From Flavobacteriales bacterium (GTDB lineage: Bacteria > Bacteroidota > Bacteroidia > Flavobacteriales_F > PHOS-HE28): a stretch of DNA of 64,000 nt. Of the stretch, positions 9,140-58,513 are shown piece after piece (within the stretch, counting starts at the first letter, position 1; the number at the start of each line of letters is the position of its first letter). A program made the position numbers and the translations under genes. The stretch is from NCBI GenBank assembly GCA_016710685.1, contig JADJVC010000001.1:200948-264947 (forward strand), given 5' to 3'. Below the pieces are notes generated by a model. The model did not search any database and had not been told where the DNA came from. It saw nothing but the letters and a program-made list of their open reading frames with translations.

Positions 9140-9166
9140 TTCTTGGACATTGAAAAACAGAAAACC

Positions 9167-11221
9167 ATGAAAGCATTTTACCTCCCCTTCGCCTTTGCCG
9201 CGCTTGCCGCAGTAACGGCCTCCGCGCAGTACAGCGCGACCATCACCATTACGGACTTCAGTACCGGTTTGCCGGTGGAGAATGCGACTGTTGCGCGCGG
9301 TGGCACTTCCATGACCACGAATGCAGCCGGTCAAGCCATTTTCCCCGGATTGCCGAACAACACGTACAGCTTTTCCGTGACCGCCACATGCTACTATCCC
9401 GGTGCCGGAATGATCACGATCGCTGGTGCCAATGCCGCGACATCCCTGGGACTGGATCCCATGGCCACCAACAACCTGTTCTTCTTCATCGGCGACCCGA
9501 TGGCGATCACGAGTGCATTCGTTGAAGTGACCAACGGAGGCAACTACTACGCGAGCTTCACGACGTTCGACACCTTCGGCGGCGAAATGCTGGCGGATGT
9601 GCCCTTCGGCGAAATGAGCTATACGATCACTACGCCCTGCTACGAAACGGTGACCGGCACAGTAACGGTTGATTGCAACAACGGCGACGGCATCGCGGTT
9701 TTTGAGAATCCGGGACCGGCCACCACTAACAACCTGTTCTTCTTCATCGGCGACCCGATGGCGATCACAGGCGCATTTGTTGAAGTGACCAACGGAGGCA
9801 ACTACTACGCGAGCTTCACGACATTCGACACCTTCGGCGGCGAAATGCTGGCGGACGTTCCCTTCGGCGAAATGAGCTATACGATCACGACGCCGTGCTA
9901 CGAAACGGTGACCGGCACAGTAACGGTTGATTGCAATAACGGCGACGGCATCGCGGTTTTTGAGAACCCGGCCCCAGCCACCACCAACAACCTGTTCTTC
10001 TTCATCGGCGACCCGATGGCGATCACGGGTGCATTCGTTGAAGTGACCAACGGTGGCAACTACTACGCGAGCTTCACGACATTCGACACCTTCGGCGGCG
10101 AAATGCTGGCGGACGTTCCCTTCGGCGAAATGAGCTATACGATCACCACACCGTGCTACGAAACAGTGACCGGCACAGTAACGGTTGATTGCAACAACGG
10201 CGACGGCATCGCGGTTTTTGAGAACCCGGCCCCGGCCACCACCAACAATCTCTTCTTCTATATCGGCGATCCGCTGGCGATCATCGGTGCATTCGTTGAA
10301 GTGACCAACGGTGGCAACTACTACGCGAGTTTCACGACGTTCGACACCTTCGGCGGCGAAATGCTGGCGGACGTGCCCTTCGGTGAAATGTCCTACACCA
10401 TCACCACGCCGTGCTTTGAAACGGTCACCGGCACGGTGATGGTTGATTGCAACAACGGCGACGGTATCTTGGTGGCAGCCGATCCAGGACCCGCAACCAT
10501 GAACAATTTGTTCTTCTACATCGGCGACCCGCTGGCGATTCTTGGTGCTACAGTGAATGTGACCGATGGCGGTAGCTACAATGAGAGCTTCGTGACGTTC
10601 GACACCTTCGGCGGCGAAATGCTGGCGGATGTGCCCTTCGGCGAGATGAGCTACATGATCAGCGCACCTTGCTACGAGACCGTGACCGGAACAGTGACGG
10701 TGGACTGCAACAATGGTGACGGCATTGCGATCTTCACCAATCCTGAACCGGTCGTCTTGGACGTTACAGTCGACGTGTCCGGGAATACCCTCATGGCCGC
10801 AGCCACCGGCATGGAGTACCAATGGGTGGATTGCGATAATGGCAATGCCCCGATCGATGGTGCCACGGCACAGAGTTTCCAGCCTACGGAAAATGGCAAC
10901 TATGCCGTGGTGATTTCCGACGGGGACTGCTCGCAAACCTCAACCTGCACAGCGGTGATCGTTACCGGGGTTGACCAGGTCGAAGGCCGGGATGCTTTCG
11001 CAGTTTACCCCAATCCGTTCGCTGACAGGCTCACTGTTCGAACCAATGGAAAGTTGGGTCCCGTCCGTGTGGAACTCCTCAGCTTGACCGGCCAAGTAAT
11101 CCTGGACGAGAGCGGCTCCGGCATGGAGATCAGCTTGCTGACTTCGGAGCTTCCTTCCGGTAGCTACTTGCTGCGTCTTTCGTCGGAAAGCGCCCGCACA
11201 ACGATCAGCGTGGTGAAGTAA
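9167..11221 (+). CDS. T9SS cargo protein containing five tandem 86-aa repeats and Por_Secre_tail CTD
   Basis: Signal peptide MKAFYLPFAFAALAAVTASAQ; repeat TNNLFFFIGDPMAIT...CNNGDGIAVFENPAPAT x5; C-terminal FAVYPNPFADRLTV...TISVVK CTD. Confidence 0.8.
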   Translation: MKAFYLPFAFAALAAVTASAQYSATITITDFSTGLPVENATVARGGTSMTTNAAGQAIFPGLPNNTYSFSVTATCYYPGAGMITIAGANAATSLGLDPMATNNLFFFIGDPMAITSAFVEVTNGGNYYASFTTFDTFGGEMLADVPFGEMSYTITTPCYETVTGTVTVDCNNGDGIAVFENPGPATTNNLFFFIGDPMAITGAFVEVTNGGNYYASFTTFDTFGGEMLADVPFGEMSYTITTPCYETVTGTVTVDCNNGDGIAVFENPAPATTNNLFFFIGDPMAITGAFVEVTNGGNYYASFTTFDTFGGEMLADVPFGEMSYTITTPCYETVTGTVTVDCNNGDGIAVFENPAPATTNNLFFYIGDPLAIIGAFVEVTNGGNYYASFTTFDTFGGEMLADVPFGEMSYTITTPCFETVTGTVMVDCNNGDGILVAADPGPATMNNLFFYIGDPLAILGATVNVTDGGSYNESFVTFDTFGGEMLADVPFGEMSYMISAPCYETVTGTVTVDCNNGDGIAIFTNPEPVVLDVTVDVSGNTLMAAATGMEYQWVDCDNGNAPIDGATAQSFQPTENGNYAVVISDGDCSQTSTCTAVIVTGVDQVEGRDAFAVYPNPFADRLTVRTNGKLGPVRVELLSLTGQVILDESGSGMEISLLTSELPSGSYLLRLSSESARTTISVVK
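9467..10757 (+). repeat. Five tandem 258-bp direct repeats inside the CDS; copies 1-3 nearly identical at DNA level, copies 4-5 diverged
   Basis: AACAACCTGTTCTTCTTCATCGGC recurs at 9470, 9728, 9986, 10244 and 10502, an exact 258-bp period. Confidence 0.9.
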
Positions 11222-16789: not shown

Positions 16790-17322
16790 CCCTGTGGGTG
16801 TTTAGGTTTCCTGCCAAACCTCCAGAAAGAAAAAGTGCTTGCGCGCACGCAGAAAAAGCGGGCACTTGGGCACGCCCCTTTCCTGGAAGCGATCATCCAA
16901 TGTGCCGGTGACAGGTCTTCTGGCTCGCCATTCTCCCCGGCGCCTTCCCATCCTCCTTGCGGTGGACAGTGGCTTCGTGCCGGTTCGTTTCAGGCTTACA
17001 GCTTCAGGAAAAGCCCGGGATTTGCACCCGGTTCCCTTTTAACCCCGCTTGTTACCACGGAGATCATCAGCGCGGCGAAGGTAGGTCGTTATGGAGATCT
17101 GGTGTGGTGAGAGAAATTTCTGGTACAGCGTATCGGGTACTGGGTACCGAGTACTGCCGACCGCCTGGCGACTGCATCTGCCAGCTGCAACTGCCGACTC
17201 TTCTCAGCGCCCCTGGCTGCCGAAGGCATGCTCTGCGTCAAAAAGCTCCGTGAACCTCTGTGCCTCCGTGCCTCTGTGGTGTAAAAAACACTCCATCGCT
17301 CCCCATTACCTTTGATCTCCCT

Positions 17323-25756: not shown

Positions 25757-26127
25757 GCGTTGGTGATTTTGGTCTTGCAGGTGTTTGGCAAAGATGGGGC
25801 CAACCTGAAAATCAGCATGATCGAACTGGTACTACCGGCGGATTGCGCATCATTGGAACGCTGAAAGGCACGTGCGGCTATTCCTCAGTTGAAGAAGAAT
25901 GGGAGCTTCAAATCCTGTCGATCCTGTTAATCCTGCTCAAAACCCCGAAACTCCCGCAAGTGTTCCAGCCTTCCAGGAATGTGCGTTCCAACTGGGCTGG
26001 GTCACTTGTGGGCATCTTGATTTTATTCATAACACCTCCTAATCCTTTCCCCAAGCGCCGCCAAGACCGATCTTTGCGTCCAAATGATGGGCAAACCTCT
26101 CTTTCAGCCCAAAAGCTCCTGATCAAT

Positions 26128-28544: not shown

Positions 28545-28990
28545 GACCAACTGTTTTTAGCCACAGATCCCGCCGATTACGCAGATGTTTCCCGCGTTGC
28601 GGGAAGGAACCCGCGGGTTCAGACTCCAATCGGCATTTATCTGTGTAATTCCGCTATTGCGGAACAGGTGCTGCGTAATCTGCGGCTCTACCTTTTGAGG
28701 CCGGCATTCACGTTGCGTCCGATACTTATCGGACCGTTGCGTACTTGGCTGCCGTAGGCATACCGTCGCGGTTCTCAACTTTGAGGCCGGTTTTCCGACC
28801 GCAGGTCGCGCTTAGCGGAATTCTTTGCGTGCTTTGCGTCCCCGGCTCCCGTAGGGCTGCATTAGGGGTATACCGATCAGAGGCCGGTATTCCCTTCCAC
28901 CGAAAAGCACCGCATCCAAAGGTTTCCCACTTCACCCTGTTGGTGAAACGTAGCGGTCTCCGGGTCGAAAAGCACACACGTTCCCGAATT
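28545..28990. repeat. Intergenic hairpin-rich repeat cluster (locus 1 of a dispersed family): CGCCGATTACGCAGAT + TTCCCGCGTTGCGGGAA core, TTCCGCTATTGCGGAA, three TGAGGCCGGnATTC units, CGACCGCAGGTCG and TCCGATACTTATCGGA hairpins
   Basis: Non-coding 497-bp gap. Its modules recur at 47995-48440 and 58280-58513 (e.g. TTTTTAGCCACAG..CGCCGATTACGC right after a stop codon in loci 1 and 2; identical TTTCCCGCGTTGCGGGAA hairpin in loci 1 and 3). Confidence 0.75.
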
Positions 28991-46541: not shown

Positions 46542-47942
46542 ATGAGCTTGATCGTGGTCATCATCATCCTGGCGCTGGTTTTCGACTACATCAACGGCTT
46601 TCACGACGCCGCCAACTCCATCGCCACGGTAGTGAGCACGAAAGTGCTTTCACCCTTCCAGGCCGTGGCGTGGGCGGCGATGTTCAATTTCGTTGCCTTC
46701 TTCATCTTCAAGGACCATGCGGTGGCGAACACCATCAGCAAAACGGTGCATGCCCAGTTCATCACCTTGCCGGTGATCTTGAGCGGGCTGGTCGCCGCTA
46801 TCATTTGGAATCTGTTGACTTGGTGGTACGGGATCCCCAGCAGCAGTTCGCATACCCTGATCGGCGGATTCGCAGGGGCTGCGCTCACGCATGCGTTCTC
46901 CACACAAACAGGGCTTTCGTTCGCTGACGTTGTGGAAAGCGGCATGATCCTCAAGATCGTCGCCTTCATCTTCCTGGCCCCCTTGCTGGGCATGGCCCTC
47001 AGCATGTTCGTGTCCTTGGTCACATTGGTGGAGAATACCTGGTTCCGCGTCTCACTCATCATCCTTACCTCGATCTTTACATGGTTCCTATTCCTGCATT
47101 TGCAAGAAGGGAAGATGGAAGACAACATCGCCAGCGTAATGCAGGTGGATGTTTTGCACACCCAAGCACAGCTCGACCCCAGCACCACTGCACTGTACGA
47201 ACAGGCGCAATTGAAATTGGATGAAGCCACGCCATTGCTGGCGCTCTATCCTAAGATCGGTGCTTCAGGCGTCGCCAAGCGGATCATCCATGACGTGGAT
47301 CCTACTTTGGACGAAGCCAAGCTTACCAAGGCGATCTCGAAAGGCGACAATTCCTGGATCCGCTACGGGATGATGGTGTTCGCATTGATCTTCATCATCG
47401 CGTACGTCTACGTGGAAAAGGTGAAAACGCCCAGCGCGTTCAGCATGGCCAAGATGTTCAAGCGGCTGCAATTGGTCTCCTCAGCGGCCGTTAGCGTGGG
47501 CCATGGCGGCAATGATGCGCAGAAGGTGATGGGCATTATCGCGGCAGCGCTGATCGCCAACGGGGACATCTCCGATTTCAAGGATATGCCGACTTGGGTC
47601 CCGCTGGCGTGCTACACAGCGATCAGTTTGGGCACCTTGAGCGGTGGTTGGAAGATCATCAAGACCATGGGCACACGCATTACCAAGGTGTCTCCATTGG
47701 AAGGCGTTTGCGCGGAAAGCGGCGGCGCCATCACCCTGTATCTCACCGAACAGATGGGCATACCAGTAAGCACCACGCACACCATCACGGGCAGCATCAT
47801 CGGCGTAGGTGCCACCAAACGGCTTAGCGCAGTTCGTTGGGGTGTTACCATCCGCCTGCTTTGGGCGTGGATCATCACCATTCCGATCAGTGCTTTGCTG
47901 GCGGCGTTGGCGTATTGGGGTTGTCACCTCTTGGGACTGTAA
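46542..47942 (+). CDS. pitA: Inorganic phosphate transporter, PiT family
   Basis: MSLIVVIIILALVFDYINGFHDAANSIATVVST (N-terminal PHO4 signature), repeated in the C-terminal half (GHGGNDAQKVMGIIAAAL); long cytoplasmic loop. The start was moved from the track's 46419. Confidence 0.85.
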   Translation: MSLIVVIIILALVFDYINGFHDAANSIATVVSTKVLSPFQAVAWAAMFNFVAFFIFKDHAVANTISKTVHAQFITLPVILSGLVAAIIWNLLTWWYGIPSSSSHTLIGGFAGAALTHAFSTQTGLSFADVVESGMILKIVAFIFLAPLLGMALSMFVSLVTLVENTWFRVSLIILTSIFTWFLFLHLQEGKMEDNIASVMQVDVLHTQAQLDPSTTALYEQAQLKLDEATPLLALYPKIGASGVAKRIIHDVDPTLDEAKLTKAISKGDNSWIRYGMMVFALIFIIAYVYVEKVKTPSAFSMAKMFKRLQLVSSAAVSVGHGGNDAQKVMGIIAAALIANGDISDFKDMPTWVPLACYTAISLGTLSGGWKIIKTMGTRITKVSPLEGVCAESGGAITLYLTEQMGIPVSTTHTITGSIIGVGATKRLSAVRWGVTIRLLWAWIITIPISALLAALAYWGCHLLGL

Positions 47943-47994
47943 TCGTATCCTCGCCCACAAATCGGACCGCCGCAAGGCGTCGTCCTGATCGGTG

Positions 47995-48440
47995 ATCCAT
48001 TTTTTAGCCACAGTTTTCGCCGATTACGCCGATGTTGCATTGCGGGGCGCGGGCGCGTTGGAAGCACATTGCCTACGGCAAAAAAAACCTGTGCAATCCT
48101 GATATGGTGGGACAGGTTCTGTGGACCTTTTTTCACGGCCACGATTCTTGTTTTGAGCCGCCGATTTCGCCGATTACGCCGATGTTGCATTGCGGGGCGC
48201 GGTCGAGTTGCAAACGCATTGCCTACGGCGAAAAATATGTGCAATCCCGCTCTGGCGGGACAGGTTCTGTGGCTCCCTCATTGAGGTCGGCATTCCGACC
48301 GAAGGTCGCATCTGTGTATATCCGAGGGTTTTTCATTGAGGCCGGTATTCATCTGTGTAATCCGTGTAATCTGTGGCTCTTCAATTAGTGCTCGCATTCC
48401 GTCCGACACGTATAGGACCGAAGCATCTATGGCATCTGTG
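47995..48440. repeat. Intergenic hairpin-repeat cluster (locus 2 of the dispersed family) including two tandem ~145-bp copies
   Basis: CGCCGATTACGCCGATGTTGCATTGCGGGGCGCGG...CATTGCCTACGGC.AAAAA...TGTGCAATCC...GGACAGGTTCTGTGG occurs twice (approx. 48020-48137 and 48162-48285). TGAGGTCGGCATTCCGACCGAAGGTCGC and TGAGGCCGGTATTC units match locus 1. Confidence 0.75.
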
Positions 48441-48475
48441 GAGCATTGATGGAACTAATACCCGATCTTCGCGCC

Positions 48476-50134
48476 ATGCTCCGGAAGCTCCACGTGCAGA
48501 ACTATTTACTGATCGATCAGTTGGAGCTGGATCTCGGTGCGGGCCTTACGGTGATCACCGGCGAGACCGGCAGCGGCAAGAGCATTTTGATCGGCGCATT
48601 GGGATTGCTTTTGGGCGACCGGGCCGAAGGCAACCTGTTGCGGGACGCCGCGAAGCGCTGCGTAATTGAGCTTGAAGTGGGAGCGGGGCGGGGTTCATCG
48701 CCTGCGGCGGAATGGTGCGAACGCAACGGGTTGCCTCTTGAAGAACCGTTGCTGTTGCGCCGCCAATTGGAACCCGGCGGCCGCTCGCGCGCATTCGTGA
48801 ACGACACGCCCGTACGCCTGGAGCAGCTCCGCGAATTAGGTGGCTTGCTCGTTCATGTCCACAGCCAGCACCACACGTTGCTATTGAATTCGCCCGCGTT
48901 CCAACTCGGACTCGTGGACCATTTCGCCGGTGAAGGCGGGGAGGTGAAACACATTGCGAGCGGCTTTTCCGCATGGCGGAAGGTGAAAGATGAATTGGCC
49001 CGGTTGCGCGAAGAAGAACGCAACGCACAAAGTGAACGCGACTACTTGCAGTTTCAATTCGAAGAGTTGGAAGCCGCACGCTTGGTGGCCGGGGAACAGC
49101 CGGAACTGGAGCGTGCTTTGTCGCGAGCGGAAAACGCGGGTGAACTGGCCGGTGCTTTTCTAGGGATCGAGGAAGGCATCAACGCGGACCGCGGCATCGC
49201 GGCGTTGCTGGCCACACTTCGGCAGCACACCTCAAAGGCCGCCCGGCTGGATGCTGGCGTGCAAGCCTTGGCCGAACGCCTTCAAAGTGCAAGCATTGAG
49301 TTGAAGGATATTGCCGAAGAAGCAGCCCGTTTGGCCGGCGAGATCAACCTGGACCCCAAAGCAGCCGACCGGCTGCGCGAACGTGCGGACCTGTTGAATC
49401 GCCTGGAACAAAAGCACCGCGTGGAAAATGCGGATGCCCTAATCGCTTTGCGCGACGAGCTGAAGGAGAAGATCGCCCGCATAGGATCCATGGAAACGGC
49501 GCTGAAGGAATTGGAACAACGCGAACAAGCCATGGGAGCCGAATGGCTGAAACATGCAGAAGCGCTCAGCACAAAGCGCGCGAAAGCCCTGAAGCCGCTT
49601 AGCGCCGAGGTCAGCAAGCAATTGAAGGAGCTGGGCATGCCGCATGCCGTATTCAACTTCAGCCAAACGCGCACCGAGCCCGCAGCAACCGGCATCGATG
49701 CCGTTCGAGCCCTATTCTCCGCCAATAAAGACCGCGCCCCTGAGCCGTTGGACAAAGTGGCCAGTGGAGGCGAGCTGGGGCGCGTTATGCTCGCATTGAT
49801 CGGCTTAGCCGCGGAAAGCAAGGAACTGCCCACGGTGATCTTCGACGAAATTGACACCGGTGTAAGCGGTGAAGCAGCCCATCGCGTAGGGACATTGTTG
49901 AAGACGATGGCCCGTCAACGCCAAGTGATCGCCATAAGCCACCTGCCGCAGATCGCCAGCAAGGCCGACACGCACTTGCTCGTGACCAAAGACCACGAAG
50001 CCGAGCACGTGCAAAGCGACATCCGTCCACTGAATGCTGAAGAGCGCGTAAAAGCCTTGGCCCAAATGCTCAGCGGCAAAAAGCCCGGCAAGGCCGCCTT
50101 GGAAAATGCGAAGGAGTTGTTGAAGGCAAAGTGA
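48476..50134 (+). CDS. recN: DNA repair protein RecN
   Basis: MLRKLHVQNYLLIDQLELDLGAGLTVITGETGSGKSIL (Walker A); long coiled coil; C-terminal ...LPTVIFDEIDTGVSG... (Walker B). An alternative start at 48446 is possible. Confidence 0.9.
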   Translation: MLRKLHVQNYLLIDQLELDLGAGLTVITGETGSGKSILIGALGLLLGDRAEGNLLRDAAKRCVIELEVGAGRGSSPAAEWCERNGLPLEEPLLLRRQLEPGGRSRAFVNDTPVRLEQLRELGGLLVHVHSQHHTLLLNSPAFQLGLVDHFAGEGGEVKHIASGFSAWRKVKDELARLREEERNAQSERDYLQFQFEELEAARLVAGEQPELERALSRAENAGELAGAFLGIEEGINADRGIAALLATLRQHTSKAARLDAGVQALAERLQSASIELKDIAEEAARLAGEINLDPKAADRLRERADLLNRLEQKHRVENADALIALRDELKEKIARIGSMETALKELEQREQAMGAEWLKHAEALSTKRAKALKPLSAEVSKQLKELGMPHAVFNFSQTRTEPAATGIDAVRALFSANKDRAPEPLDKVASGGELGRVMLALIGLAAESKELPTVIFDEIDTGVSGEAAHRVGTLLKTMARQRQVIAISHLPQIASKADTHLLVTKDHEAEHVQSDIRPLNAEERVKALAQMLSGKKPGKAALENAKELLKAK

Positions 50135-50194
50135 ACAGCTAACCGATCCCCACATTCCCCACATCCCCCTATCTTCGGGCCGAAACAATACACC

Positions 50195-51010: not shown

Positions 51011-51087
51011 TTGTCAGGTCCCCCGCCAAAGCGCTCTGGCGCCGGCGGGTTGTCAGGCGCGTTCCCGCGACGTACTGTGCTTGAATT

Positions 51088-51429
51088 CTACTTCAAGAAC
51101 GCACCATCCACCACCAGCAGCTTTACTGCATTCACGGTGCGCGAGCGGTGTTGGCTCAACCCATCGGAAACCGCGTAGGAGGATCCTGCCTTCATCACAG
51201 TGGTGGATCCATCTTTCAATTCATTGATGAGTTCGCCTTCAAGCACAAAGACCAAGTGGCCAAGTTCGCACCAGTGGTCCGCGAGGTAGTTCGCACTGTA
51301 CTCGACCATCCGGATACGCAAGTCGCCAAGTCGCTGGATCTGCATGGTGGCCGTGCCCGAAGTGCCGTTTACAACAGTGACGGGCACTTGCGCCCATTCG
51401 GTGATCTGGAAGGGGATGTGGAGAGGCAT
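51088..51429 (-). CDS. DHCW-motif cupin fold protein
   Basis: 113 aa; contains the literal DHWCEL motif; MPLHIPFQITEWAQVPVTVV... matches the family. Confidence 0.75.
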   Translation of the reverse strand: MPLHIPFQITEWAQVPVTVVNGTSGTATMQIQRLGDLRIRMVEYSANYLADHWCELGHLVFVLEGELINELKDGSTTVMKAGSSYAVSDGLSQHRSRTVNAVKLLVVDGAFLK

Positions 51430-51871
51430 GGTACGTCGAAGGTAGCTTTACGTGGCAGTCCGAAGACTGCTTGAAGCGATCTTGCCTTGATCGACTGAGC
51501 AGCCCACCACTCGCCCCGGCCTGTTTCAGCAGGAACTCACTTTATTGTTGGGCCAGACTGGCGGGAGGGCGGGGTCCGCGAGGTAGTTCGCACTGTACTC
51601 GACCATACGGATGCGTAGGTCGCCGAGCTGCTGGATCCTCATAGTGGCGGTGCCCGAAGTGTCGTTTACAATGGTGATGGGCACATGATCCCATTCGGTA
51701 ATATGGAAGGGGATGTGTAGAGGCATGGTACGTCGAAGGTAGCTTTACGTGGCAGTCTGAAGACTGCTTAAGCGATCTTGCCATGATCGACTGAGCAGCC
51801 CACCAGTCGCCCCGGCCTGTTTTCAGCAGGAACTCACTTTATTGTTGGGCCGGGAAGACTGGCGGGAGGGA
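51278..51871. repeat. Tandem ~297-bp duplication (51278-51574 and 51575-~51871) covering the cupin 5' coding region + leader, creating a truncated second copy
   Basis: GTCCGCGAGGTAGTTCGCACTGTACTCGACCAT... aligns at ~90% identity with a 297-bp offset; each copy ends in AGACTGGCGGGAGGG. Confidence 0.85.
51526..51726 (-). pseudogene. Truncated duplicate of the DHCW cupin gene (N-terminal ~52 aa, then unrelated tail)
   Basis: MPLHIPFHITEWDHVPITIVNDTSGTATMRIQQLGDLRIRMVEYSANYLAD then diverges (PALPPVWPNNKVSSC*). Confidence 0.55.
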
Positions 51872-51917
51872 GGGAAGACTGGAGGGAGGGGTGGGAAGAC
51901 TGGAGGGAGGGGTGGGG
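51852..51917. repeat. G-rich minisatellite (GGGAAGACTGGAGGGAGGGGT)x3, potential G-quadruplex former, at the edge of the tandem duplication
   Basis: gggaagactggcgggagggagggaagactggagggaggggtgggaagactggagggaggggtgggg. Confidence 0.8.
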
Positions 51918-52147
51918 ATTACCCAATCTCCCGCAAGTCTTCCCGGCTAACCAAGAATTGCGCTCCAACACAGACAGCCGGGGCGACTTGTGGGTTATGA
52001 AATTACTTGCATCCATGCTTTGCTCGTGAAGTCTTCGGACTTCACACAGAAACCGTTCAATACTTTACCAATTTCAGCAACCTAAGTTTCCGTCTAACGG
52101 CTGGCAATTAACGGAGAAAAAGCAAGTCCCTTGCTCATCCGCACCTC

Positions 52148-52933
52148 TCACCGCCGCACCACGCTGTACGTGTTCACCGTGTTGCCGGTGTGTACGCGCA
52201 GTAGGTAAACGCCTTTGTCGAGGTCGGTAAGGTCGAGCGGGATGCGCACTAGGCCGGTGGCGTTGCGGTGCTCTTCGTTGCGGACTACTTGGCCGGCGGC
52301 GTTCAGCAGTTCCAGGCGGAGGTCTTGCGCTTGGGCCAGTTCCACGGTAAACAGGGTGGTGCCTTCGGTGGGGTTGGGCGTGATGTTGGCCACGCCGTCT
52401 ACGAGTTCGCCTGCAAAAATGCCGGTGGTGAAGTCGCCGTAGATAGCACCCGTTTCATCCACACCGCCCAAGGCGAGGTAGTAGTCGGCGTTGTTCAAGG
52501 TGGTCCAAGTGTCGTTCACCATGCTGAATTCGGCGGTGCCGGTAACGGGGATGGTAGCGATGGTGTACTCCTGTCCCGCGACCCAGTCCGTAGGGATCCA
52601 CTGCAAGGGGGTAAGGCCGAAACCCACGAAGATCTGGTAGCGCAGGCCGGCATCGTCCAGCTCGCTGCCGCTACGGGTAACGGGGATGTAGGTGCTGGCC
52701 GGGGCCACCTGCTGAATGGTTCCAAGGTGCGCATCGGTGGCGGCATCCCATCGGATGGTGAAGACGAGGCTGCTTACCATGCCGTCAAATCCCGCGCTGG
52801 GCCGCAGGCGCACATCCAATTGCCCGCTTGTGTTGGGTACCAGGGTGATGTCTACCGGAGCGGCGCTGGCTACTGTGGCCATGGCCAGAAAACCGGTTGC
52901 GAGGATACTGCGGAAGGTGTGGGAAAGGCGCAT
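52148..52933 (-). CDS. Secreted T9SS cargo protein with Por_Secre_tail CTD
   Basis: Signal MRLSHTFRSILATGFLAMATVASAAP; C-terminal NITPNPTEGTTLFTVELAQAQDLRLELLNAAGQVV...YLLRVHTGNTVNTYSVVRR. The start was trimmed from the track's 53005. Confidence 0.75.
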   Translation of the reverse strand: MRLSHTFRSILATGFLAMATVASAAPVDITLVPNTSGQLDVRLRPSAGFDGMVSSLVFTIRWDAATDAHLGTIQQVAPASTYIPVTRSGSELDDAGLRYQIFVGFGLTPLQWIPTDWVAGQEYTIATIPVTGTAEFSMVNDTWTTLNNADYYLALGGVDETGAIYGDFTTGIFAGELVDGVANITPNPTEGTTLFTVELAQAQDLRLELLNAAGQVVRNEEHRNATGLVRIPLDLTDLDKGVYLLRVHTGNTVNTYSVVRR

Positions 52934-56742: not shown

Positions 56743-56901
56743 GGTTTTAATCGCGGAGGGCGCGGAGAGCGCAAAGGATACTTACGAATGCGGGATGCTT
56801 TCGGCGAATGTGGTTCACCGCGACGTGCGCAACGCCTGAGGCTTTCGCTTGTTTTCGGATTCCTCTTCTCCGCGTTCTCCGCGCCCTCTGCGGTTAAAAC
56901 C
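56743..56901. repeat. Long imperfect inverted repeat (~30-bp arms, ~85-bp spacer) in the dapB–lepB intergenic region
   Basis: Left arm GGTTTTAATCGCGGAGGGCGCGGAGAGCGC (56743-56772); right arm GCGTTCTCCGCGCCCTCTGCGGTTAAAACC (56871-56900), the reverse complement with ~27/30 matches. Confidence 0.7.
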
Positions 56902-58279: not shown

Positions 58280-58513
58280 GGCGTGACTCGGCGGAGACAG
58301 AATACGGAGATTCCCCAGAAGAGGCCGCAGATTTCGCCGATTTCGCCGATTTCGCCGATGGCTGCCATCGGCGGTAGTTGCCGGGCGGGCAGCTTTCCCG
58401 CAACGCGGGAAAAAATCTGCGTAATCGGCGCAATCTGAGGCTATCCCAAATGAGGACGGTCGCGTCAACGGCATTCCATTTTCTGATCGTCTGATCATCT
58501 GATCGTCTGATCC
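58280..58513. repeat. Intergenic hairpin-repeat cluster (locus 3 of the dispersed family) with (GATTTCGCCG)x3 and (TCTGATCR)x4 micro-tandem repeats
   Basis: The reverse complement contains CGCCGATTACGCAGATTTTTTCCCGCGTTGCGGGAAAG, the same core as locus 1. GCAGATTTCGCCGATTTCGCCGATTTCGCCGAT lies at 58328-58360 and TCTGATCGTCTGATCATCTGATCGTCTGATCC at 58481-58512. Confidence 0.75.

Follow-up and report, generated by a model that had tools for sequence, protein, structure and literature searches.

Between the genes pitA and recN, the 64-kb window analysed here, the whole 64,000-nt stretch of Flavobacteriales DNA under study, carries five or more interspersed repeat modules of the hairpin type. They form a non-coding mosaic, which we call locus 2. 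The start codons of the two genes are most likely at 46542 (pitA) and 48476 (recN). Their assignment in the first-pass annotation is supported by the pitA orthologue of a relative (L121; 83% nucleotide identity), which is a PF01384 gene, and by the NCBI-named RecN. The cluster begins 58 nt past the pitA stop codon, and the region is arranged as follows.

46542..47942, + strand: pitA, PHO4-family phosphate transporter (open reading frame; L121 orthologue of 466 aa, PF01384); upstream flank, outside the element
47943..48000, + strand: native spacer separating the pitA stop from the repeat cluster; it contains a T-run, a small GC hairpin and a terminator-like site (47978-47994), and L121 has an analogous short spacer
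48001..48124, + strand: element 2a, with left arm, GC-rich inner segment and decayed right arm
48125..48150, + strand: 26-nt linker between the tandem copies, ACCTTTTTTCACGGCCACGATTCTTG
48151..48272, + strand: element 2b, with left arm (48157-48183), inner hairpin and reduced right arm
48278..48332, + strand: module c, with GAGG box (48283-48295), alternative hairpins and decayed right arm ATCTGTGTATATCC
48333..48380, + strand: module d, with GAGG box (48338-48350) followed by an intact right arm
48381..48444, + strand: module e, with degenerate box TTAGTGCTCGCATTC, imperfect hairpin GTCCGACACGTATAGGAC and right-arm remnant GCATCTATGGCATCTGTGGAGC
48476..50134, + strand: recN, best matches being DNA repair protein RecN of Flavobacteriales metagenome-assembled genomes (MAGs); downstream flank, outside the element

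Architecture of the repeat modules

The left arm consists of three 9-bp units, AGCCRCAGAT-TWCGCCGAT-TACGCMGAT, as found by TRF (period 9) and by an inverted-repeat search, and the complementary sequence, ATCTGYGTA-ATC…-ATCTGYGGCT, forms the right arm. When complete, a module amounts to a long palindrome with imperfections. Element 2a has all three units in its left arm (48006-48034) and a right arm decayed to TTCTGTGG, while in element 2b the inner hairpin is TCCCGC-TCTG-GCGGGA and the right arm has been cut down to TTCTGTGGCTCC. On the left, both copies keep an intact arm. The other modules carry the GAGGYCGGYWTTC box in place of the left arm; modules c and d open with this box, and that of module e is degenerate. 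The GAGG-box modules have the same right arm at their 3' end and are therefore variants in which the box substitutes for the left arm. The best-preserved right arm of the cluster is that of module d, ATCTGTGTA-ATCCGTGTA-ATCTGTGGCT at 48351-48378, joined straight to the box. Module c can form two alternative hairpins, GGTCGG/CCGACC and CGACC-GAA-GGTCG, and the first of them, reported earlier as perfect, is indeed present at 48285-48300.

The GAGGYCGGYWTTC box occurs five times in the window at no more than one mismatch, always on the + strand and only at loci 1 and 2, against 0.5 occurrences expected by chance; five were reached in none of 100 shuffles. The shared TGAGGYCGG units of the first-pass annotation are thus confirmed, and they are in fact the 5' boundaries of modules ending in the common right arm. 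The annotation had also described two tandem copies of about 145 bp at about 90% identity. Elements 2a and 2b are arranged head-to-tail, with 86.3% identity over 124 nt (blastn, E 5e-34), and a repeat search aligned them in two segments (88% over 85 nt and 86% over 42 nt, at spacings of 150 and 148). The tandem copies therefore stand, with length and identity slightly overstated, and the repeated unit is not a plain tandem repeat but a hairpin element that has inverted arms, each of three 9-bp units, at its two ends. Locus 2 does not form a CRISPR array, since there are only two 150-bp copies and their interiors are homologous instead of being unique spacers.

Copies 2a and 2b fold no better than their shuffles (z = -0.7 and -0.3), and the same holds for the whole of locus 2 on both strands (z = -0.6), so we dropped the idea of a single large structured RNA at this locus. 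Both copies have decayed and are probably inert.

Related loci in the window

At least four loci of hairpin elements are present within the window, together with a solo arm.

25911..25940, + strand: solo arm of a further sister type, three units of ATCCTGTNN
28554..28990, + strand: locus 1, a complete hairpin element (28554-28700) followed by three GAGG-box modules
56745..56900, + strand: locus 4, a hairpin whose arms are of a sister type and built from the unit CGCGGAGNN
58320..58446, + strand: locus 3, a well-preserved element with 4+3 arm units enclosing three inner hairpins

The arm pattern GCCNCNGATNNCRCNGATTWCRCNGAT has seven matches in the window at up to two mismatches, against none expected, and a broader unit pattern has 13 sites against 0.9 expected, which adds locus 4. 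Locus 3, which is not listed in the first-pass annotation, was uncovered by the degenerate arm pattern. Locus 3 and the element that opens locus 1 each form an outer stem around small GC hairpins and fold far better than shuffles, with z-scores of -6.8 and -3.7, respectively. The arms in the window fit the family core (C-R-C-N-G-R, with GCC or ACC at the start of the first unit) with at most one mismatch, and they are preceded on the 5' side by TTTTTA, TTTTGA or AGAG. The arm type of the solo arm also flanks a cluster of modules in a metagenome contig (L131).

Pairwise alignment, together with the box statistics, bears out a dispersed repeat family common to loci 1 and 2. The opening of locus 1 recurs after pitA, as had been claimed, over 36 nt (89% identity, blastn E 5e-7). 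The first-pass annotation had considered all three of the parts that it compared homologous to modules of locus 1. This is significant for the opening and for the CCGACCGNAGGTCGC module (module c; 29 nt, 86% identity to 28781-28809, E 1e-3), and weak for the third, module e (42 nt, 71% identity to 28708-28749, E 0.03).

We also considered several known classes of short motifs for the units and rejected them. A sponge for CsrA would require GGA motifs, but most units here read CAGAT or CCGAT, and we know of no CsrA in Bacteroidota. DnaA boxes and parS half-sites resemble the units only partially, and the elements are not restricted to the origin. A LexA box upstream of recN is not supported by loci 1, 3 and 4, which do not lie near SOS genes, and sharing across phyla would not be expected of DNA uptake sequences.

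Turnover of the cluster among relatives and strains

An exact look-up of the RecN encoded in the window, with either of two start codons, gave no record, and relatives were reached through homologues of RecN, which point to an uncultured Flavobacteriales bacterium as the source. One collinear relative (L121; GCA_016719225.1) has a RecN 89% identical to that of the window, and between 38.7 and 61.2 kb of the window the nucleotide identity to it is about 83%. In L121, 47 bp separate pitA from recN, with an unaligned gap of 33 bp versus 519 bp in the window. The whole of locus 2 is absent there, so the presence/absence polymorphism that the first-pass annotation had suggested looking for does exist at this spacer. 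The spacer at locus 3 is 89 bp long in L121, compared with 287 bp in the window, and does not contain the element; the spacer at locus 4 is different and has no arms, and no arm was found anywhere within the 21.6 kb of L121. The filled and empty sites are too diverged from each other to resolve a short target-site duplication. The cluster is thus lineage-specific, having been either gained after the split from the GCA_016719225.1 lineage or deleted there. In a more distant relative (L123), part of module 1b lies in a different spacer, on the downstream side of recN, and modules of the window type are found in an unrelated context in contig L131.

A metagenome scan with module c retrieved near-identical strains, whose contigs are 97.5-98.7% identical to the window and differ from it in the structure of the clusters. 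The population of about 98% identity is represented in JGI samples Ga0209480, Ga0075152 and Ga0075163 and in SRR14932654. At locus 2, two of the strains (L132 and L135) have an extra block of 104 bp that repeats modules c and d in diverged form and has TCTGTGGCTCCC at either end, which makes the indel one between 12-bp direct repeats. The toleration of this indel indicates that the cluster is unstable and non-coding. At locus 1, the left arm is shorter by precisely one 9-bp unit in strains of about 98% identity. These strains also have a different inner module of about 50 nt, which is found in the unrelated contig L131 as well, and are missing 15 bp that make a small palindrome perfect in the window. 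The tandem copies are 92% (2a, 91.9%) and 95% identical to their orthologues in the strains, compared with 98.5% for the flanks. Within a strain, both copies have variants in common, CCTACGGC in the window and CCTGCGGC in the other strain, which points to concerted evolution of 2a and 2b through gene conversion between them. The contig of one assembly in the Logan collection (L122) begins inside copy 2b, indicating an assembly break within the repeat.

Turnover of the cluster is therefore fast, proceeding by 9-bp slippage, deletion and duplication between direct repeats, exchange of modules between loci and conversion of the tandem copies. We saw no new insertion, target-site duplication or excision footprint among the comparisons with strains and relatives, and every change seen can be explained by recombination and slippage alone. 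The first-pass view of an actively expanding element was hence overstated: the two copies are 14% diverged, their right arms are reduced to a single unit, they fold like shuffles, and the changes between strains do not include a new insertion.

The arm motif across bacterial phyla

We scanned 185,579 species genomes with an arm pattern of 18 fixed and three two-fold positions and obtained at least 120 matches, where we estimate that chance would give about two in 596 Gb. The matches listed include Acidobacteriota, Chloroflexota, Planctomycetota, Verrucomicrobiota, Bacteroidota and Spirochaetota, as well as Cyanobacteria-related lineages, Pseudomonadota, Gemmatimonadota and MAGs labelled Bacillota. 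Isolates are also among them (Luteimonas arsenica, Salinisphaera sp., two Bacteroides spp. and Gemmata sp.). A few of the listed matches, for example in Saccharimonadales, look like coincidences within coding sequences.

The canonical form of the element is a hairpin of 70-200 bp with a median loop of 44 nt (range 8-245). The generalised arm is (A)GCCRCRGAT-TWCRCRGAT-TWCRCRGAT, with its complement on the other side of a variable core of small GC hairpins. A logo of 134 arms has exactly three units per arm, with purines or T at the free positions and an unconserved loop. The two arms of an element covary: 72.5% of the variable positions are Watson-Crick paired, compared with 47.3 ± 2.2% for shuffled partners. 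Mismatches of the G·T and A·C types are about equally frequent (27 versus 31), counted on an arbitrary strand without transcript orientation. Although about 87% of the DNA lies in open reading frames, 95 of 124 elements are intergenic, and there is no preference for the 3' ends of genes, with 18 elements between divergent and 20 between convergent genes; the open reading frame calls behind these figures are crude. Up to three hairpins occur per 8 kb. An A-run upstream and a T-run downstream, as in bidirectional intrinsic terminators, flank 12 of 51 canonical elements, and the others have a T-run on the 5' side and an A-run on the 3' side, or no such runs. The palindrome often runs on into the variable and otherwise unrelated flanks as inverted sequence, which argues against target-site duplications.

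Other sources returned little. A BLAST search of plasmids with canonical hairpins gave no match, and the motif is rare on viral contigs, where seven matches fell on gut phage contigs without annotation. Rfam had no match at 18 canonical loci (130 kb). A literature search, with paywalled papers and ISfinder outside its reach, did not find a published description of the arm motif, and searches with 12-16-mers of the arms returned unrelated primers only.

Arms flank genes of GxxExxY nucleases

We clustered the open reading frames near hairpins across 120 listed loci. Besides housekeeping families, this gave a group of proteins of about 125 aa from four phyla, which corresponds to PF13366 (PDDEXK_3), or TIGR04256, the GxxExxY family. 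All four PF13366 genes from these loci are bracketed by periodic arms, and in one of them (L032) the gene lies between two perfectly complementary arms. Because these loci had been selected for their arms, we repeated the test from the protein side with seven GxxExxY homologues picked by the protein alone, on contig span or taxonomic label. Arms were present on both sides of all seven. Altogether, 11 of 11 GxxExxY genes examined, seven of them picked by protein, are directly flanked by arms; this is a small number against the roughly 34,000 cluster representatives of the family. Across five of the protein-picked loci (28.9 kb), all eight strict arm matches lie within 260 nt of the gene, and in some cases (L138, L143 and L148) the arms abut the start and stop codons. 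The arms are therefore part of a cross-phylum hairpin family that flanks GxxExxY genes or encloses them in the loop. Neither the occurrence of the arms in many phyla nor their tie to nuclease genes had been noticed in the first-pass annotation. Several arm subtypes are found at these loci (…GAT, …GAG/GGG and …GAA), with the 9-bp period and the C-R-C-N-G-R core in common.

The cassettes sit within operons, including a restriction-modification-like gene cluster, and one of them (L149) is located between cas1 and cas2. In another case (L148), the GxxExxY gene is set in an array of five tandem hairpins, an arrangement parallel to that of the tandem copies at locus 2. GxxExxY genes are the only recognisable cargo found between closely spaced arms. 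A single arm pair 2.2 kb apart (L115), which we had considered as a transposon with distant arms, encloses the housekeeping gene nadB, and we rejected that candidate.

The GxxExxY motif and the D…ExK catalytic residues are invariant among the aligned proteins. A confident structure model (pLDDT 93.6) predicts a fold closest to nuclease cores of the Cas4/RecB and lambda-exonuclease types, with the Hjc resolvase lower in the list, while a sequence search of the PDB with GxxExxY gave no homologue. The family has 34,406 clusters at 50% identity (E ≤ 1e-3), including many two-domain fusions. One survey (PMC3424549) gives its function as unknown and remarks on "multiple transfers", and none of the papers that we found under any name of the family deals with repeats. 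There is no GxxExxY gene or remnant within the 64-kb window, and the arm sequence alone is what ties the hairpins of the window to the GxxExxY system.

Alternative explanations

The hairpins could be transcription terminators or stabilisers of the mRNA 3' end for pitA, selected at the RNA level. Such a role would be in line with the position of the cluster, which begins within 58 nt of the pitA stop, with a pair of weak terminator-like sites, and with the A-run/T-run flanks of 12 of the 51 canonical elements. However, two sites are within the chance expectation of 0.9 ± 1.0, locus 2 and its tandem copies fold like shuffles, and many elements of the family have their T-run and A-run the wrong way round. 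The elements are placed between divergent genes about as often as between convergent ones (18 versus 20), L121 manages with a spacer of 33-47 bp, and terminator function needs no common stem sequence in ten phyla. We consider this explanation unlikely, whereas a secondary role as terminators is plausible for some members of the family.

Conventional miniature inverted-repeat transposable elements (MITEs), that is, non-autonomous deletion derivatives of insertion sequences moved by a classical transposase binding the terminal inverted repeats, would account for imperfect terminal inverted repeats, the length of 70-200 bp, the intergenic location in many copies, and presence or absence between relatives. 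Against them stands the lack of target-site duplications, with the palindrome extending into the flanks in inverted and not in direct orientation. The sole recurrent cargo is a PD-(D/E)XK protein of 125 aa, the one arm pair that is 2.2 kb apart holds a housekeeping gene, and the motif is rare on viral contigs (seven matches) and absent from plasmids. A classical MITE origin thus seems quite improbable to us.

The spacer might also be a passive recombination product of hairpin-prone DNA, arising without a dedicated enzyme, with its likeness to other loci incidental. All of the strain-level changes are indeed slippage, indels at direct repeats or conversion. Yet the same arms and modules recur at four or more unlinked loci of the window and in unrelated contigs, the arm pattern is far above chance across phyla, and it is tightly linked to one gene family. 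We regard this possibility as very unlikely, since it is largely refuted by the arm statistics and the clustering of arms at GxxExxY genes.

Finally, a small RNA, a riboswitch-like recN leader or a small protein, for which one could cite the position upstream of recN and the overlapping open reading frames of 106-118 aa (48032-48388 on the + strand and 47924-48244 on the - strand), is highly improbable, as Rfam gave no family at the gathering score or at E ≤ 10 in the window save one chance-level match, neither a sigma-70-like nor a Bacteroidota TAnnTTTG promoter motif is present in locus 2, the region is missing from L121, and the length of the indel between strains, 104 bp, is not divisible by three.

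Discussion

The reading that we favour, and hold to be the probable one, is that the clusters of the window are orphan and partly decayed members of a repeat–nuclease system resembling REP/RAYT, which at locus 2 have built up an unstable mosaic. Our confidence is higher for the descriptive parts of this reading and lower for a spread driven by the nuclease. Hairpins without a gene, including those of the window, might be orphan or miniature derivatives of the gene-carrying cassettes. A GxxExxY nuclease encoded elsewhere in the genome would recognise the periodic stem, possibly as an extruded cruciform or as a single-strand hairpin, and might drive, or might once have driven, the spread of the hairpins, by analogy with REP/RAYT and with MITEs and their insertion sequences. 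Any effect on the co-transcription of pitA and recN would be a side effect. To our knowledge, a 125-aa PD-(D/E)XK nuclease cannot join DNA strands by itself, and for this reason the mechanism of mobilisation is not obvious.

In a wider sense, the 9-bp hairpins and GxxExxY proteins might constitute an unrecognised cross-phylum repeat–nuclease system, a PD-(D/E)XK counterpart of REP–RAYT, of which the clusters in the window are orphan arrays. We put this forward tentatively, as a proposal that could well be right and that falls somewhat short of our own conviction. In such a system, the nuclease would recognise the three-unit stem and would propagate the hairpins or be propagated with them.

Taken by itself, locus 2 is an unremarkable cluster of interspersed repeats in decay, and its interest comes from its family membership. 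Immediately 5' of a DNA-repair gene, an operon spacer of 33-47 bp has expanded into over 500 bp of hairpin DNA that is unstable, and the repeat breaks short-read assemblies, as in L122. Interspersed repeats are normally lineage-specific, and it is therefore unexpected that one precisely definable hairpin, with arms of three 9-bp units, should occur in phyla ranging from Acidobacteriota to Bacteroidota. The tight linkage to GxxExxY provides a substrate that can be tested for this very large family of nucleases, whose function is on record as unknown; if the proposal is true, about 34,000 sequence clusters labelled "function unknown" would gain a substrate and a biological role. The presence of cassettes inside operons, including between cas1 and cas2, is also relevant to genome annotation.

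Comparison with known systems

Intrinsic terminators share with the present family a GC-containing hairpin and, in a quarter of the canonical members, the flanking A-run and T-run. They differ in that the stem here is conserved across phyla and is not biased to gene 3' ends, and the copies at locus 2 have neither a U-tract nor stable folding. The intervening sequences of 23S rRNA that bear an open reading frame (PF05635) similarly hold a small gene in the loop of a long hairpin, and they are defined by insertion into an rRNA helix and excision by RNase III. Their protein fold and arm sequence differ from those of the GxxExxY cassettes. At the locus with the five-hairpin array (L148), a PF05635 gene is also flanked by periodic inverted arms (GGATGAAGG.../...CCTTCATCC).

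Neisserial NIMEs are likewise intergenic mosaics of interchangeable modules with short, conserved inverted-repeat boundaries, and they vary among strains by recombination. Their sequences are unrelated to the arms, however, and their dRS3 boundary repeats are not 9-bp periodic arrays; we know of no cognate nuclease gene for NIMEs. MITEs such as Correia, Nezha and RUP resemble the family in having terminal inverted repeats around a non-coding element in the range of 50-500 bp (here 70-200 bp), an intergenic location, presence/absence polymorphism and long hairpins. They differ from it in that target-site duplications are missing here and the arms are internally periodic, and no transposase that could mark an autonomous parent insertion sequence was found between arms.

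The closest functional parallel is with REP/BIME sequences and their RAYTs (REPtrons) and with REPINs. The mosaic of hairpin modules in the pitA–recN spacer resembles the BIME clusters of E. coli, and REP sequences are also short extragenic palindromes in many copies, clustered in mosaics with other motifs. As in REPINs, the doublets form hairpins, judging from the intergenic location of 95 of the 124 elements, the covariation of the arms and the folding. The differences lie in sequence and in the partner enzyme. The GT[AG]G foot of REPs is not seen, the 134-arm logo having A/T-rich flanks and no GTAG beside GCC; each arm contains three periodic 9-bp units in place of a single palindrome of 20-40 nt; and the same arm sequence is found in many phyla, in contrast to the lineage-specific REP sequences. 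The repeats given for RAYT subclass 2.6 and class 3 (PMC6006769), among them the "atypical" ones of Bacteroidetes and of class 3 enzymes, also differ in sequence from the arms. At the loci covered, we did not find an HUH-Y1 RAYT flanked by arms, and the only recurrent flanked gene encodes a PD-(D/E)XK protein (PF13366) instead of an HUH-Y1 protein (PF01797-like). In both systems, a single-domain nuclease gene is flanked by the repeats, most copies of the repeat are orphans, and turnover within species is rapid. The arrangement of a repeat with a dedicated nuclease, exemplified by the HUH-Y1 RAYTs, might thus extend to the PD-(D/E)XK fold.

Further hairpin arms and neighbouring repeats

The periodic inverted arms of the hairpin family, each composed of about three 9-bp units, were found at two additional sites in the window, one as a paired locus and the other as a single arm. 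The only Rfam family represented in the window was a riboswitch.

56745-56900: fourth hairpin locus, of a sister arm type, with arms AATCGCGGAG-GGCGCGGAG-AGCGCAAAG … TTCTCCGCG-TTCTCCGCG-CCCTCTGCGGTT
25911-25940: solo intergenic arm of three ATCCTGTNN units
16893-17083, minus strand: full-length cobalamin riboswitch (RF00174, 110.8 bits)

At the position of the fourth locus, the syntenic relative GCA_016719225.1 (about 83% nucleotide identity) has a shorter spacer of unrelated sequence. An arm of the solo ATCCTGTNN type also borders a group of modules known from the window, on an otherwise unrelated metagenome contig.

Other repeats occupy several intergenic spacers. The spacer at 51014-52148 contains a 297-bp tandem repeat in two copies followed by a 21-bp repeat in three copies (51276-51916), and its length is 1134 bp in the window compared with 264 bp in GCA_016719225.1. 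The contig of a strain about 98% identical gave two alignments to this spacer, which suggests, from sequence comparison, that repeat copy number varies between strains. An 8-bp repeat, TCTGATCG (3.9 copies, 58482-58512), adjoins the third hairpin locus (58320-58446) just past the stop codon of a minus-strand gene for a Tricorn-like protease. The short spacer between recN and a dehydrogenase gene contains the 9-bp periodic sequence TCCCCACAT (2.6 copies, 50147-50169), and in a more distant relative the same spacer carries a 190-bp insertion with a match to module 1b of the first hairpin locus. Within the long open reading frame 9143-11221, a 258-bp tandem repeat (9465-10729; 4.9 copies, 88% match) probably encodes repeated protein domains.

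Arms and cassettes in other genomes

In some elements of four loci from the genome scan (L022, L097, L101 and L104, from various Bacteroidota and Chloroflexota MAGs), a GAT-type left arm is paired with a neighbouring arm built of CTCTGCG, CACGAAT or CACGGAG units, indicating that several arm subtypes coexist side by side in one genome.

Protein searches with GxxExxY, the PD-(D/E)XK nuclease of about 125 residues whose gene had such arms on its flanks in all 11 cases examined, returned many genes whose contigs measure just 0.5-3 kb, which fits with assembly breaks at the repeats on either side. Among the top matches in the representative library were many proteins of about 265 residues with two GxxExxY domains.

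One Logan contig (SRR22387923, 1-2900) carries a CRISPR adaptation module whose cas1 and cas2 genes are separated by a GxxExxY cassette, arms included, and, after it, a nucleotidyltransferase/HepT-like gene pair. A restriction-modification-like gene cluster in a Kiritimatiellae MAG contains a gene for a PF05635 "23S rRNA intervening sequence protein" (100-700) and, at a distance of 0.9 kb, a GxxExxY cassette. Because the PF05635 gene is enclosed by periodic inverted arms of its own (GGATGAAGG… upstream and …CCTTCATCC-like downstream), the hairpin-cassette architecture may be used by a second small-ORF family, PF05635, besides GxxExxY.
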